Positions 53,904 through 63,525 of a stretch of DNA of 64,000 bases are shown piece after piece; position 1 is the stretch's first letter, and each line of letters opens with the position of its first letter. The stretch covers positions 3,487,811 to 3,551,810 of the forward strand of contig NZ_OZ241977.1 of the NCBI RefSeq assembly GCF_965204145.1. Direction: 5' to 3'. Source of the stretch: Candidatus Poriferisocius sp. (GTDB lineage Bacteria; Actinomycetota; Acidimicrobiia; Acidimicrobiales; Bin134). Position numbers and translations under genes: made by a program. The notes under the pieces were generated by a model. That model saw only the letters and a program-made list of their open reading frames with translations. It was not told the DNA's origin and did not search any database.

Positions 53904-53979
53904 GCCCCGTTCGTCTAGAGGCCTAGGACGCCAGATTCTCAATCTGGTAACACGGGTTCGAATCCCGTACGGGGTGCCA
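53904..53979 (+). tRNA. tRNA-Glu (anticodon CUC), CCA encoded
   Basis: Hand-folded: acceptor GCCCCGT/ACGGGGT, D arm TCGTCTAGAGGCCTAGGAC typical of tRNA-Glu, anticodon arm CCAGA-TTCTCAA-TCTGG, T arm ACGGG-TTCGAAT-CCCGT, 3' GCCA. Confidence 0.92.
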
Positions 53980-58681: not shown

Positions 58682-58954
58682 ATGGGTCGAGGATCAGAGA
58701 GCTTTCAGAAGCGACAGCGAGAGAAGAACAAGCGAGAGCGGGCTGCGGCCAAGCAGGCCCGCCGCCACGGCAAGCTTGAGGTTCCGTTCGAGGAAGAGGA
58801 TGAGGCGCCTTCCACAAACGGAAAGTCAGAAGCCGAGTTGTACGAAGACTTCCGCCTGCTGAGCGAGAAGTACCAGTCCGGGGGAATGGACGAGGAGACC
58901 TACGAGCAGCGCCGGGCCGAGATCTTCGAGCAACTCGGCCTTGAGGTCCACTGA
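58682..58954 (+). CDS. Small highly charged protein (90 aa), C-terminal SHOCT-like helix pair
   Basis: The N-terminus is Lys/Arg-rich (KRQREKNKRERAAAKQARR). The C-terminus GGMDEETYEQRRAEIFEQLGL resembles SHOCT. Confidence 0.55.
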   Translation: MGRGSESFQKRQREKNKRERAAAKQARRHGKLEVPFEEEDEAPSTNGKSEAELYEDFRLLSEKYQSGGMDEETYEQRRAEIFEQLGLEVH

Positions 58955-58972: not shown

Positions 58973-60019
58973 CTATCCAGCGGGCACTGCCCGACTGGTG
59001 GGCATGCCCAGCATGCACGACAATCCCGCCGACTGAAGCCCGCCCGCGCCACCGGCCACCAGGATCACGAAGTAATCGGGAGAGGGCACGATCGGCACCC
59101 GGTCGTTCTCGATGGCCACACCGAGCTGCTCCAGCACGTCTCTGGTGGGCTGGCGCCGATAGGGGGGGTAGAAGTCCAACGGCACTCGGGCTTCAGCGAA
59201 CAGATGCTCTCGCAGTTCCTGCTTGGTGGGCAGAAGGCTGGCCACCATCTCGGCGATGACCGGGCTCATCACCAGCACGGTTGGGAAGGGGTTGGGGGCG
59301 TCATGGCCCCCGCACGGCCCGCTAATGGCCAGGCCGTTGGTCACGTGGTGCAGCACCTGGTCGGGCTCGTGGTGCATGTCGGTGATGGGCCACATCCCGT
59401 TCACGGCCAGCACGGTGACCACATCCTCGTCGGCGTCGAACCCCAGTTCAGTGTGGTAGGGCGGCCACGGGGAGGCTTCTTCGTTCTCGGCCACGCACAG
59501 CGAGGTGACCTTGCCGGGCCAGCCCAGCGGCGCCTTGTCCACCTCGCCGGGGATGGCCCCGCCGATGTTCACCAGTGCCAGTCGCATCGCTCGTCCGACA
59601 GTGGCGTTGGCGTGCGATCCGGGCCCGAAGCATCCGGCACCGTAGTTGAAGCCCAGACGATGGCGGATCGGGCCGTTCACCACCAGCATCGGGCCCACCG
59701 GGTTGGTGGTGGTCTGCACCCCGTGGGCGTTCATCTGGGGGTCGCAGAAGGCGTCGATAGCGGCTATCAGCACCGGCATCGCCTCAGACGAGCATCCGGC
59801 CATCACCGCGTTGACCGCGATCTTCTCCACCGTGGCTGGCGCGTTCAGCGGGGGCACGTCGCTCACCACATGGTCGGCCGACAGCCCGGAAGCAGCCACT
59901 GCGGCAGCCACCCGCTCAGGGGTGGGGGGAACGACCGGCAGCCCATCGGACATGCCCCGTTCTCGCAGATAGGCCTCGACTTCTTCGTGGCCCCCCTCGA
60001 TTGTGACCCGTTGGGTCAT
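58973..60019 (-). CDS. Hypothetical protein (348 aa) translationally coupled to the UGSC selenoprotein gene
   Basis: Clean host-composition ORF. Its ATG (60017-60019) overlaps the TGA stop (60016-60018) of the upstream gene as ATGA. No family recognised. Confidence 0.75.
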   Translation of the reverse strand: MTQRVTIEGGHEEVEAYLRERGMSDGLPVVPPTPERVAAAVAASGLSADHVVSDVPPLNAPATVEKIAVNAVMAGCSSEAMPVLIAAIDAFCDPQMNAHGVQTTTNPVGPMLVVNGPIRHRLGFNYGAGCFGPGSHANATVGRAMRLALVNIGGAIPGEVDKAPLGWPGKVTSLCVAENEEASPWPPYHTELGFDADEDVVTVLAVNGMWPITDMHHEPDQVLHHVTNGLAISGPCGGHDAPNPFPTVLVMSPVIAEMVASLLPTKQELREHLFAEARVPLDFYPPYRRQPTRDVLEQLGVAIENDRVPIVPSPDYFVILVAGGAGGLQSAGLSCMLGMPTSRAVPAG

Positions 60020-60555
60020 GCCACCAATGCGTCCACGATGTCGTCGAGGCGGGATGCGATGTCGGCTCTGATGTCATCCTCAGACCACTCGTCGTAGCCC
60101 GACGGCAACACGATCAACGGCTGGTTGTCCACCCGCAGGCCCCGGGCAGTGGCCTCGGCCAAGCCCCGGAACTGCTCGGTCACCAAGCCCACTGCCGGAG
60201 TCCCCATGGCTTCCAGCGTGCTGCTGGCGTGGATACACCACGCCGTGCACGAGCCTCAATTGCCCAAACCGCTGATCACCGCGTCGACTTCCTTATGGAA
60301 GGCCTCCATCTCCTGCTGATACTGCTCGGGGTCGGCGCCGTGCATCGGGCCGCTGGCTCGAACCACTACTCCGGCCGCCCCGGCCCGGTTTACCAACTGG
60401 TGGGACAGCTCATCGGCCATGATCGCCATAGACCGCCACATGTCGTTGTCGATGATGCCCACCACCGCGCCAGCCAGCGAGTCCTTGCGAATGGCGAGCG
60501 GCTGGGCCGGCTCGTTCACCTCGCCGGTGGGCAACAAGATGGTGGTCGTTTCCAT
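60016..60555 (-). CDS. UGSC-family selenoprotein (179 aa, Sec at codon 100 encoded by TGA 60256-60258)
   Basis: Track ORFs 60256-60555 and 60016-60207 are in the same frame. Translating through gives ...AVISGLGN-U-GSCTAWCIHASSTLEAMGTPAVG..., which contains the U-G-S-C motif. A SECIS-like hairpin lies immediately downstream. Confidence 0.85.
60217..60251 (-). promoter_or_regulatory. Bacterial SECIS-like stem-loop for the UGSC gene
   Basis: mRNA after the UGA has a lower stem CGUGC/GCACG, an internal loop, a 7-bp upper stem GGCGUGG/CCACGCC and an apical loop UGUAU. Counting from the U of UGA, the loop G and U fall at positions 23 and 24, as recalled for E. coli fdhF SECIS. Confidence 0.75.
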
Positions 60556-60634
60556 GGAAGCTCCTCCCAGAAAACTCTCGACGACTCTGGCGAGCCCTTC
60601 TGGTCCACCCTACCCCGTGCCGTATTGTGTCGCG

Positions 60635-61627
60635 ATGCGCACAACGACGCTTCCCCGGCCCCCGGTCATCATGGAACAGTCCCTGGAAGACCCCGATGTG
60701 CTGCTGGGCATATTGCAACGGCAGTCGCCCCATCCGCTGACGCTGGCCGGCGCAGAATTCGTCGAGAGCCGGGCCGCGCTGCGAGCCGGAGCCCGCACCG
60801 GCGACGTCCCCCCGTTCGTCGATGTGGTTGACGGCGAACCCCGGATCCCACCGGTGTTCCGCACCACGTGGGGTGCCGAACACCAGGCCGTGGAGGGGGC
60901 TGACACCATCGTCAACAACCCCCGGTTCATCGAGGCCGCCCGGCAGCTCTATGGCGCCGAGGTGGTGCGGCCCTATTTCACCTACGTGAACATCAACGCT
61001 CCCAGCGGCCAGTACGCCCGCCACACCGACATTCCCTCCTTTCGGGGGGTCGGCCGCAACGAATACCCCACCTGGCTGCTCAATTGCATGATGCACTCGG
61101 GCTGCTTCGATCGTTGGCGGGTGCGGATCGCCACCGCGGTGTGCTGGTACTACGAGGGCACCGGCGGGGAGTTCACCTATTGGCCCGAGGGTTGGGACGG
61201 CGACATGGTGACGGTGAAGCCGCCCTACAACTACGGCGTTATGGGCGACAACGACTACATGCCCCATCGGGTGGAGACCATCGGCGCCGAGGCCGACTAC
61301 GCCAAATACGGCTTCGACGCCACCATCGCGCTCACTCCCGACCGCCAGTGGATCATCGAAGAGCCCGGCCATGAGCCGGTGATCCACGCCTTCGACGAGG
61401 TGCGGGTGTCGCTGTCGTGGAAGGCCTTCGTGTTCGACGACCCCCAAGAAGCCGAGGTGTACGACAAGCACCTGGACGACCTGGACGAGCCCACGCTGAT
61501 CGCCACGATGGCCGAGGACTGCGCCCGCCGGGGCATGGCTGTGCCCGACGGGCCCGACGCGCTGGCTAATCCCGAATTCGGGGAGCGGATCAGAGAAACC
61601 TACTTGTCCCCCGAATTGCGGTTCTGA
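60635..61627 (+). CDS. Hypothetical protein (330 aa)
   Basis: The track ORF 60419-61627 was trimmed to ATG 60635 because its 5' part is antisense to the UGSC gene. No confident family. HTDIPSF and DNDYMPHRVE hint at a metal-binding cupin/oxygenase-like fold, but this is a guess. Confidence 0.65.
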   Translation: MRTTTLPRPPVIMEQSLEDPDVLLGILQRQSPHPLTLAGAEFVESRAALRAGARTGDVPPFVDVVDGEPRIPPVFRTTWGAEHQAVEGADTIVNNPRFIEAARQLYGAEVVRPYFTYVNINAPSGQYARHTDIPSFRGVGRNEYPTWLLNCMMHSGCFDRWRVRIATAVCWYYEGTGGEFTYWPEGWDGDMVTVKPPYNYGVMGDNDYMPHRVETIGAEADYAKYGFDATIALTPDRQWIIEEPGHEPVIHAFDEVRVSLSWKAFVFDDPQEAEVYDKHLDDLDEPTLIATMAEDCARRGMAVPDGPDALANPEFGERIRETYLSPELRF

Positions 61628-61713: not shown

Positions 61714-63525
61714 GTGTTCGGTCTCAGGCGGGTTTCGAAGTTGGCATGCTGGCGCTGGCTGGCTTTGTTCTGCGCGCTGGCGCTGGTGGCCTCAGCCTGC
61801 GGGGGGGGGAACGACGATGACGCCGGCGATGGCGGCGGTGTGGCCGCTGAGGCCACCGCCGCTCCTGAGGCGCCCTCTGGAGACGGCGACGGTGACGCCC
61901 CCGCTCCCAGCGACGACGGCGAGGACGAAGCCCAACCCAGTACCGATGACAGCGGCGACCAGGGCGATGGAGCAGATGAGGACACCTCAGCCCCCGAGCC
62001 CGCGGCCACGGAGGCGCCCGAAGCAGCGGTGGAGCCCCAGTACGGCGGCACGCTGGTGGTTGGGCTGGAGGCGGAGACCACCAACGGGCTGAACCCGGTC
62101 AATGCCCAGGCCGCAGTGTCCGGGCACATCCTGTTCCGGGCTCTGTACGACACCCTGACCGTTGAGGGTCCCGACGGCGAGGCCGTGCTCAACTTGCTGG
62201 AGAGCATGACCTCCAACGACGACTTCACCGAGTGGACCATGACCCTGCGTCCGGGGATCACATTCCACGATGGGACACCGGCGGACTCGGCTGCGCTGAA
62301 GCGCCATTTCGAAGAGCAGGCCACCGGCACGCTGACTGGCATCGTGGTGAGCGATTGGGATGTCGAGTCCATCGACATCATCGACGATCTGACCATCCAG
62401 ATGAACTTGGGGAAGTCGTTCGCCCCATTACCCAATTATCTGACCAGCCATCTCGGATATTTCGGGGCGCCGTCGATGTACGACTTGGGTCCGGAGGGTT
62501 CGGCCCGCAACCCCATTGGTGCCGGCCCGTTCATGCTGGAGGAGTGGATTCCCAACGAGGTCACCCGGATGGTGCGCAACCCGAACTACTGGCGAACCGA
62601 CGCCGAGGGTCGTCAGCTTCCCTATCTCGACGCCTTGGAGTTCCGGCCCATCCCCGATACCGATGGCCGGTTCGCGGCCCTTCGGTCCGGCGACCTCGAT
62701 GCCAGCAGTGTGAACACCGGTCTCAGAATCGACGACTACAACGAGGAGTTCAAGACCTACTGGCAGAAAGACCGGTACAACGAGACCACCTACCTCCTGC
62801 TCAACAACTCCCGGCCCCCGTTTGACAACGTGGACTTCCGCCGGGCTCTGGCCCAGTGCACCGACCGCCAGACCTTCAACACCATCCGCTGGGACGGGCA
62901 GACACCGTCCACCGGCCCCTTCTCGCCGGGAACCCCCGGCTACTTGGAGGACGCTGGATTCCCGGCCTACGACCCCGGCGCGGGCAGCGCCGCCATTGCC
63001 AGCCTGGGAATAAGCGATGTTGAGATCGGCACAACCAACGATCCGGCCAACCTCCTCAACACCGAGCTGATCGCCGCGATGTGGGGAGACTGCGGATTGG
63101 ACGTGACCATCACCCAGGTCGACCAGGCCGAGTTGATCACCAACGCGGTCTTCGGGCTGTTCACCGCTTTCTTGTGGCGTCAACACGAAGGCTATGACGT
63201 GGGCACAGAGCGGGTGTGGTGGCACAGCAAGTTCAGCCAGGGGATCGCATTGAACTTCGGCCGCATCAACAACCCGACGATTGACGCTGCGCTCAACGAG
63301 AGTCTGATCACCAAGGACCTCGACCGGCGCAGAGAACTCGCCGAGGAGATCAACCGGGCGTTCGCCGAGCAGGTCCACTACATCTGGTTCTACGAATCGA
63401 ACTGGTTGTTCGCAACCCAAGACCATGTACACGGCATCGACAACCTCACACTTCCCGGCGGCGTAGAGCACGAGAAGGTGTTCAGCGGGAGGGTGTTCTT
63501 GACCGAGGCTTGGATCGAGCAATAG
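61714..63525 (+). CDS. ABC transporter substrate-binding lipoprotein, family 5 (peptide/nickel, DppA/OppA-like) with acidic low-complexity linker
   Basis: Lipobox LVASAC. A D/E/G/A-rich linker of about 80 aa is followed by GGTLVVGLEAE, NPNYWR and other family-5 SBP features. Confidence 0.85.
   Translation: MFGLRRVSKLACWRWLALFCALALVASACGGGNDDDAGDGGGVAAEATAAPEAPSGDGDGDAPAPSDDGEDEAQPSTDDSGDQGDGADEDTSAPEPAATEAPEAAVEPQYGGTLVVGLEAETTNGLNPVNAQAAVSGHILFRALYDTLTVEGPDGEAVLNLLESMTSNDDFTEWTMTLRPGITFHDGTPADSAALKRHFEEQATGTLTGIVVSDWDVESIDIIDDLTIQMNLGKSFAPLPNYLTSHLGYFGAPSMYDLGPEGSARNPIGAGPFMLEEWIPNEVTRMVRNPNYWRTDAEGRQLPYLDALEFRPIPDTDGRFAALRSGDLDASSVNTGLRIDDYNEEFKTYWQKDRYNETTYLLLNNSRPPFDNVDFRRALAQCTDRQTFNTIRWDGQTPSTGPFSPGTPGYLEDAGFPAYDPGAGSAAIASLGISDVEIGTTNDPANLLNTELIAAMWGDCGLDVTITQVDQAELITNAVFGLFTAFLWRQHEGYDVGTERVWWHSKFSQGIALNFGRINNPTIDAALNESLITKDLDRRRELAEEINRAFAEQVHYIWFYESNWLFATQDHVHGIDNLTLPGGVEHEKVFSGRVFLTEAWIEQ

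Follow-up and report, generated by a model that had tools for sequence, protein, structure and literature searches.

We identified a gene at positions 60016-60555 of the minus strand of a 64-kb stretch of bacterial DNA (the window, by which we mean the whole stretch) that very probably encodes a single selenoprotein, translated through an internal UGA codon that is recoded by means of an mRNA hairpin. The gene would specify a 179-residue protein of the UGSC family in a Candidatus Poriferisocius-like member of the Acidimicrobiia, a sponge-associated lineage, with the UGA at codon 100 read as selenocysteine (Sec) during translation. UGSC is a predicted selenoprotein family that has been known since the mid-2000s and was first defined in the Sargasso Sea and Global Ocean Sampling (GOS) metagenomes, and to our knowledge it has stood on every prokaryotic selenoproteome list since those analyses. 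The family is known already and the window gene is a further member of it; as a selenoprotein call alone, the finding is routine. New here are the occurrence in the Poriferisocius lineage, a gap in the annotation of this clade, a near-universal linkage to a partner gene that includes substitution by redox domains, and the prediction of a flavodoxin-like fold.

The in-frame TGA and the UGSC family

Positions 60016-60555 of the minus strand make up one frame of 180 codons, and its sole internal stop is the TGA at 60256-60258. Open reading frames (ORFs) of 99 amino acids (60256-60555) and 63 amino acids (60016-60207) share this frame. The features of the gene are as follows.

60016-60555, minus strand: complete UGSC-family selenoprotein gene of 179 residues plus stop (start ATG 60553-60555, stop TGA 60016-60018), called from the single frame, the Pfam match and orthologues that keep the frame and its flanks
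60256-60258, minus strand: in-frame TGA, the presumed Sec codon (residue 100) of the U-G-S-C motif, with TGA or TGC at the same column in homologues
60561-60568, minus strand: Shine-Dalgarno-like GGGAGGAG, read directly from the sequence, with a 5-nt spacer before the ATG at 60555

The location of the Shine-Dalgarno-like sequence supports 60555 as the true start. Read-through would yield the product ...AVISGLGN-U-GSCTAWCIHASS..., with the motif ...ISGLGN-U-GSCTAWCIH..., and the peptide spanning the presumed Sec position would be ...VISGLGN-U-GSCTAWCIHASSTLEAMGTPAVGLVTEQFR. UGA is also the commonest ordinary stop in the window, where it ends 17 of 31 long coding-like ORFs as well as the UGSC gene itself. 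We screened the window for in-frame TGAs, using criteria that were recalibrated after a stricter filter had excluded the positive control. Four TGAs have coding-like composition on both flanks, and only the one at 60256-60258 is accompanied by a hairpin resembling a Sec insertion sequence (SECIS). A scan for a sigma-70 promoter and an intrinsic terminator found neither.

Related DNA was found in Candidatus Poriferisocius and other Acidimicrobiales metagenome-assembled genomes (MAGs) and, farther afield, in Chloroflexota (Dehalococcoidia), Proteobacteria, Myxococcota, Spirochaetes and other groups. Across 93 homologous genes the column of the in-frame stop contains TGA in 88 and TGC in 5. The 79 genome loci in which the motif was located, from Acidimicrobiia, Chloroflexota, Proteobacteria, Myxococcota and Spirochaetes, divide into 74 with TGA and 5 with TGC at this column; loci L001-L011 and two loci with gene fusions (L095 and L096, described below) all have TGA. 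An earlier reading of the window made from sequence alone (hereafter, the sequence-only reading) had expected U or C at this position when UGSC-family members are aligned, and these counts agree with it, as does Cys in four full-length homologues (P0013-P0016). Those four homologues are single ORFs that read GLGN-C-GSCTA, with Cys at the TGA column, and in their alignment with the window protein G98, G101, S102, C103, T104 and A105 are invariant.

Chromosomes of the Poriferisocius clade carry a second UGSC gene with its own partner module (see below). This paralogue is 36-38% identical and also has TGA (L054, L058, L060-L062, L064, L067 and similar loci); one example, L054:10001-10450 in OZ241383.1, is located on the same chromosome as the orthologue L041.

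Two further observations concern other members of the family. A Dehalococcoidia MAG (OZ244810.1) has three UGSC genes on one chromosome (L047, L048 and L049), all with TGA. Two of the Cys forms, P0013 and P0015, begin with an extra domain of about 95 amino acids (residues 1-95) that contains a CxxC motif and gives a sub-threshold NifU-like match (E 0.21).

With U entered as C, residues 6-178 of the window protein match positions 2-171 of the 172 positions in the Pfam profile PF24696 (UGSC family) at 114.8 bits (cutoff 25; E 6e-33). The NCBIfam model NF041046, 'UGSC family (seleno)protein' (UGSC_fam), is matched at 82.5 bits (E 3e-23), and the U/C-G-S-C tetrapeptide is present at the conserved column (GLGN-U-GSCT). 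The family name and U-G-S-C motif that the sequence-only reading had put forward are real and can be found in both NF041046 and the GOS paper (PMC2398784). That paper places UGSC among the most abundant families, with 255 Sec forms versus 21 Cys forms. A 2016 genome survey lists UGSC with 33 selenoprotein genes in 26 organisms, and reviews from 2022 and 2026 list the family still without a function.

A candidate SECIS element and the decoding of UGA

Directly downstream of the TGA the mRNA is predicted to form a hairpin, whose nucleotides we number from the U of UGA.

60226-60244, minus strand: putative SECIS core with a 7-bp upper stem GGCGUGG/CCACGCC (nt 15-21/27-33) and loop UGUAU (nt 22-26), called from its fold, invariance, synonymous depletion and agreement with the bacterial SECIS (bSECIS) consensus
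60217-60251, minus strand: extended hairpin (nt 8-42), a predicted fold that adds a lower tier CGUGC/GCACG (nt 8-12/38-42) and an internal loop AC/AGCA

In the proposed mechanism this hairpin, with its 7-bp stem, its loop 18 nt after the UGA, and G23 and U24, would act as a bacterial SECIS and bring SelB with Sec-tRNA(Sec) to the ribosome. Six lineages share, without a single difference even at third codon positions, a 29-nt block spanning the upper stem and loop. Among 36 distinct orthologues, synonymous variation at codons whose amino acid is constant occurs in 2 of 7 codons inside the hairpin versus 82 of 91 outside (Fisher P = 5e-4). One of the two changes inside, CAC to CAT, retains a G-U pair, and the other, AGC to AGT, falls in the internal loop. 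In 50 distinct TGA-form sequences drawn from all clades, 86.9% of cells for the seven upper-stem pairs are paired; shifting the 3' arm by 1-3 nt lowers this to 29-47%. At pair 16-32, 21 sequences have G-C and 24 have U-A. Stem pairs in register average 6.1 of 7 in the TGA forms, in contrast to 4.2 of 7 in the five TGC forms.

The His of U-G-S-C-T-x-W-x-x-H (codon +9, CAC, 60229-60231) is near-invariant in the TGA forms, and the same position reads L/K/R/H/R across the five TGC forms (L057, L065, L066, L075 and L076). Because this CAC codon lies in the 3' arm of the stem, the RNA structure may dictate the protein residue.

The published bSECIS consensus comprises a loop of 3-9 nt, an upper stem of 4-16 bp, a G among the first two nucleotides of the loop, a spacing of 16-37 nt from UGA to loop, and a minimum free energy (MFE) of -7.5 kcal/mol or lower (PMC13188914). 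The window hairpin has a 5-nt loop (UGUAU, with G second and then U), a 7-bp stem and an 18-nt spacing, and its MFE is -12.6 kcal/mol for the core and -20 to -25 kcal/mol for the extended form. The SECIS of Escherichia coli fdhF is similar in that it is located directly 3' of the UGA within the coding sequence, with 18 nt from UGA to loop and with G23 and U24 in the loop. This placement of G23 and U24 had been proposed from the sequence, and direct comparison with the real E. coli fdhF sequence, on which we verified the numbering, agrees with it. However, there is no sequence similarity between the two elements, the loop being GGUC (nt 22-25) in fdhF and UGUAU (nt 22-26) in the window.

The sequence-only reading had described a two-tier stem and called the element canonical. 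The RNA folds as described, but many orthologues lack the two lowest pairs of the lower tier: among the 36 distinct sequences C8-G42 is lost in 14 (ACG to ACC or ACA) and G9-C41 in 6 (TCG to TCA). The pairs U10-A40, G11-C39 and 12-38 (which alternates between C12-G38 and U12-G38) are kept, so that three of the five pairs are conserved. 'Canonical' is accurate as regards the consensus and the two loop nucleotides; it does not extend to the lower tier, which is only partly conserved, or to the bulged U17 of fdhF.

Several observations weigh against this interpretation. The extended hairpin, with an MFE of -25.3 kcal/mol in a sequence of 66% GC, is by itself not significantly more stable than shuffled sequences (z = -1.71; 8 of 200 shuffles fold as well). 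A comparison with Infernal models, which had been suggested as a check, found no Rfam SECIS family around the locus either at the gathering score or at E <= 10, and gave only chance matches to microRNAs and long noncoding RNAs. A recent preprint describes the same failure of Rfam SECIS models on bacterial SECIS elements and blames it on their poor representation in Rfam (10.64898/2026.04.03.716425). The case for a SECIS therefore rests on comparison across genomes. Within that comparison, the G-C to U-A switch at pair 16-32 may represent a single event between two clades, and the conserved Trp (UGG) and His (CAC) codons force part of the stem, so that protein and RNA constraints are entangled. 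Moreover, fdhF has bulged U17 and U18, whereas the window hairpin has a perfect, GC-rich upper stem of 7 bp with no counterpart of the bulged U17. The window protein also falls short of the 125-bit equivalog cutoff of NF041046, a cutoff likewise missed by P0013 (66.9 bits) and P0014 (54.5 bits), the latter of which one source names 'UGSC family (seleno)protein' despite its score. Finally, neither the window nor about 1.66 Mb of related loci from other genomes yielded a tRNA-Sec (ARAGORN) or SelA, SelB or SelD (tblastn with E. coli queries), a search that covered a small fraction of any one genome (the source chromosome is 3.57 Mb). In literature on Poriferisocius and Hopanoidivorans we found nothing on selenium.

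Judged by the sequence pattern, the organism very probably decodes UGA as Sec. Indirect support comes from the second, TGA-bearing paralogue, from the strict alternation of TGA and TGC, and from Sec machinery in another order of the class: selA, selC, selD and a divergent selB are reported in 84 of 84 complete genomes of Actinomarina, which belongs to the Actinomarinales (10.64898/2026.04.03.716425).

It is conceivable that the UGA is read through but not as Sec, either by a near-cognate tRNA for Trp, Cys or Arg or in response to a SelB-independent signal, with the hairpin serving as a stimulator or a ribosome pause. Such an explanation would suit the failure to find Sec machinery in the window and the related loci, and a hairpin that by itself is statistically unremarkable. 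However, we consider it unlikely: the column contains only TGA or TGC, the classic Sec/Cys signature, and does so inside a UxxC redox motif; the spacing, loop size and loop G-U of the hairpin agree with the SelB-type consensus; and UGSC is an accepted selenoprotein family in which Sec forms predominate in the GOS data. The presence of Sec machinery in the Actinomarinales likewise speaks against it.

Still less probable, in our judgement, is that the gene encodes a selenoprotein but the hairpin is a by-product of the coding constraint on T-A-W-C-I-H-A and not a functional SECIS. Three of the seven stem pairs do come from the Trp and His codons, about 40% of sequences across the family do not form pairs 15-33 and 18-30, and the loop of the paralogue lacks a G in its first two positions. 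Amino acid constraint cannot, however, cause third positions to be invariant inside the hairpin against 90% synonymous variability outside it. In addition, the only stem substitution in the orthologues preserves pairing, the His varies in exactly those forms, the TGC ones, that can do without a SECIS, and there is no alternative conserved hairpin farther downstream.

Selection across the TGA and annotation of the clade

Purifying selection acts on both halves of the gene: comparisons of the window gene with seven orthologues give a dN/dS of 0.07-0.21 for the part ahead of the TGA and 0.03-0.20 for the part that follows. All 45 orthologue loci obtained from the motif search (36 distinct sequences) retain the TGA, without a frameshift or a second stop. 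From the TGA to the next in-frame ATG (60207) there are 16 codons without a start codon, which include the GSC of the motif. The segment GSCTAWCIHASSTLE, which precedes any in-frame start codon, is invariant in the orthologues, and GSCT is kept across phyla. The proposal of the sequence-only reading that the two ORFs are one 180-codon gene is borne out by the Pfam UGSC match across the TGA, by the Cys homologues that are single ORFs, and by the dN/dS of about 0.03-0.21 over both halves.

The locus could instead contain two independent genes, one for a 99-aa protein that ends at the TGA and another for a separately started 63-aa protein, the two possibly assembling as a split protein. These are exactly the genes that gene callers report, both fragments match Pfam UGSC, and the would-be restart ATG at 60207 has a weak GGAAG ahead of it. 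Against this, the 16 startless codons are invariant at the protein level and the motif they contain is shared by distant phyla, the restart ATG is CTG in L005, L008 and L010, and the Cys forms are undivided. We regard two genes as very improbable. That a Cys UGSC gene was disabled by a TGC-to-TGA nonsense mutation can scarcely be credited, even though the codons are one base apart and Cys forms exist, since TGA recurs in every orthologue locus, in the paralogue and in other phyla and the downstream half is intact and under strong purifying selection. Taken together, the low dN/dS after the TGA, the invariant startless codons, the replacement of ATG by CTG and the use of UGA as a normal stop therefore effectively rule out that the gene is split or a pseudogene, or that the genetic code has been reassigned.

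A single selenoprotein gene of this kind is poorly served by current annotation, as had been foreseen from the sequence. Each of the 12 close relatives found in the protein collection, at 76-100% identity, ends at the TGA and covers only the first 55% of the query from its N-terminus, and one stands in NCBI as a 99-aa 'hypothetical protein'. In the contigs of these relatives a second small ORF after the TGA also matches Pfam UGSC, and the orphan ORF of 56-63 amino acids is present in several assemblies. Because the window protein scores below the NF041046 cutoff, the Poriferisocius clade constitutes a divergent UGSC subgroup, and this shortfall would explain why public records hold fragments only. 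Pipelines that rely on the NF041046 cutoff will leave this clade as shortened 'hypothetical proteins'. The locus thereby exposes a systematic annotation gap, with records that end at the TGA. It would also be a record of Sec use in an abundant sponge symbiont, Candidatus Poriferisocius, whose relatives have two UGSC genes per chromosome.

The partner gene, a possible function and known systems

The UGSC gene is followed on the same strand by a second gene.

58973-60019, minus strand: partner gene encoding a 348-aa protein from a large family that has no name; the gene's ATG (60017-60019) and the UGSC stop overlap as ATGA

Given this stop/start overlap, the two genes are probably co-transcribed and translationally coupled. 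In 88 of the 93 UGSC genes a homologue of the partner follows on the same strand at a distance of no more than 300 nt, and in two more it is fused to UGSC, so that 90 of 93 are linked. Among the remaining three, one contig stops too early and two genes have no adjacent partner (L048 in OZ244810.1 and the Chloroflexota gene L046). The adjacency is also seen with the UGSC paralogue, in distant phyla and among the Cys forms. The two fusions were verified in DNA (L095:2647-4245 and L096:2620-4221). Each is a frame of about 530 codons that begins at the UGSC start, passes an in-frame TGA (GIGN-U-GGCTAW) and continues into the partner domain.

The partner family is extensive, with 4,619 representative clusters at E <= 1e-3 (50% identity clusters). 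Among the best 150 of these representatives, 67 are longer than 375 amino acids, and 40 of the 67 contain a UGSC domain. UGSC-partner fusions occur in both domain orders, and some, to judge from their protein ends, have apparently been cut at the TGA by gene callers. The only other domains fused to the partner, in one representative each among the best 150, are pyridine-nucleotide-disulfide oxidoreductase (Pyr_redox_2, TrxR-like), the catalytic domain of ferredoxin-thioredoxin reductase (FeThRed_B) and AhpC/Redoxin. In P0176 and other rare members of the partner family the redox domain stands N-terminal, in the place of UGSC. Separately, P0138 and P0139 are tandem duplications of the partner domain.

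The 348-aa protein itself has no Pfam or NCBIfam match even at E <= 10, and sequence searches of the PDB with UGSC and with the partner returned chance-level matches only. Residues of the partner that are invariant in 40 aligned sequences include D25-G26-L27-P28, P32-T33, Cys76 (A-G-C), Cys175, Glu178 and Glu181; across the broader set of 150 representatives Cys76 stays nearly invariant and conservation at Cys175 is weaker. An AlphaFold2 (AF2) model of the partner has a mean predicted local distance difference test (pLDDT) score of 89.9 and a predicted template modelling (pTM) score of 0.90. Foldseek suggested class I fumarate hydratase as a relative, which we rejected at a template modelling (TM) score of 0.28-0.32 and a root-mean-square deviation of 15 A.

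For UGSC we examined an AF2 model of the Cys homologue P0014, which is 31% identical to the window protein. The model (pLDDT 80.8) has five alternating beta-alpha units, and its best PDB matches are flavodoxin, the flavodoxin domains of flavodiiron proteins, MdaB and WrbA, with TM scores of about 0.5-0.58. The C/U of the motif lies where strand 3 meets helix 3. A strand/helix junction of this kind is a position typical of reactive thiols or selenols. UGSC is thus predicted to be flavodoxin-like and not thioredoxin-like; a thioredoxin fold with CxxC at the first helix, which we also considered, does not correspond to the P0014 model.

The partner linkage, the fusions and the structure are the grounds on which a redox role may be suggested. 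We infer, with less certainty than the reading of UGA as Sec, that UGSC could be a dedicated selenol/thiol redox module of the partner enzyme. The selenoprotein would carry its U-G-S-C centre at the strand 3/helix 3 junction of a flavodoxin-like domain, would be co-transcribed with the 348-aa partner bearing conserved cysteines, and would reduce or re-oxidise that partner, itself the presumed catalytic component of an oxidoreductase that has two parts here and is fused elsewhere. The presence of FeThRed_B, Pyr_redox_2 or AhpC/Redoxin in the place of UGSC implies, by analogy, an equivalent role. Expressed for the family at large, UGSC and the partner of about 350 amino acids might form a widespread two-component or fused selenol/thiol-dependent enzyme, with the partner as a new catalytic subunit and UGSC as a built-in redox module that can be swapped with TrxR-like, redoxin or ferredoxin:thioredoxin reductase (FTR)-like domains. 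We advance this as a tentative proposal to which we give somewhat less than an even chance. On the other side of the scale, the evidence for the redox-partner function consists of gene linkage and domain fusions, the UGSC structure was modelled on a 31%-identical Cys homologue instead of the window protein, and the partner model has no convincing neighbour in the PDB (best TM 0.28-0.32).

Recurrent neighbours hint at an organic-acid or acyl-CoA substrate. A family III CoA-transferase (PF02515) lies within 10 kb of UGSC and its partner in 12 of 26 distant loci by raw count. Four copies, together with a gene for a MaoC-like dehydratase, surround each of the fusion genes at L095 and L096, and further PF02515 sites are found at L006:17840-19108 and L010:18792-20018.

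Other genes surround the module in the window. A divergent gene for a 330-aa protein (60635-61627, plus strand) starts 79 nt from the UGSC start, has no Pfam or NCBIfam match and is kept only in the Poriferisocius clade. It appears to lead an operon that includes SBP_bac_5 (61714-63525) and, at related loci, genes for ABC permeases. Beside the partner gene is a gene for a 90-aa protein with a weak SHOCT-like C-terminus (58682-58954, plus strand), syntenic in the Poriferisocius clade. Just past the partner gene is a luciferase-like monooxygenase gene (PF00296; 57740-58594, plus strand) that is syntenic in this clade and near the module in three distant loci. A tRNA-Glu(CTC) at 53904-53979 (plus strand) is a syntenic landmark; its distance from the UGSC operon is about 4-8 kb, both in the window and in several orthologous loci (L005:18260-18335, L006:14755-14830, L008:18584-18659 and L010:15470-15545).

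The tight linkage and fusion of UGSC with one large unnamed family turns its 'function unknown' into a concrete experimental question. If a two-component enzyme were confirmed, it would provide a testable function for a predicted selenoprotein family that ranks among the most abundant in aquatic metagenomes.

Among known systems, the selenoprotein B components of glycine, sarcosine and proline reductases (GrdB, GrdF and PrdB) resemble UGSC in being UxxC selenoproteins that work with a separate catalytic partner subunit. Membership in that family (PF07355) was rejected: there is no Pfam GRDB match at E <= 10, and UGSC has 179 residues as opposed to about 435. The Cys-form P0014 gives a weak match to the Sec region of GrdF that is not significant (NCBIfam E 0.13; 10.9 bits against a cutoff of 800). 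Thiol-disulfide redox modules (thioredoxin/redoxin, TrxR-like and the FTR catalytic subunit) are similar to UGSC in having a redox-type U/CxxC by the N-terminus of a helix. However, UGSC belongs to none of them by sequence or fold, and any functional likeness would be one of analogy.

Compared with the UGSC family as described (PF24696/NF041046), the window protein has the full-length domain and the U/C-G-S-C column, and Sec forms outnumber Cys forms in both data sets (74:5 here and 255:21 in GOS); the window clade differs in scoring below the NF041046 equivalog cutoff. The GOS paper (PMC2398784) calls UGSC a 'likely Trx-like fold', in contrast to the flavodoxin-like AF2 model of the Cys homologue described here. 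The same paper describes a fusion ('UGSC/Unknown_1') that joins UGSC to an unknown but conserved domain, itself bearing a conserved Cys. The arrangement is alike, with UGSC beside or fused to a conserved domain of about 350 amino acids that contains an invariant Cys, and 'Unknown_1' may be our partner. What is shown here and not in that work is that the operon linkage is near-universal, that fusions occur in both orders and that redox domains can stand in for UGSC.

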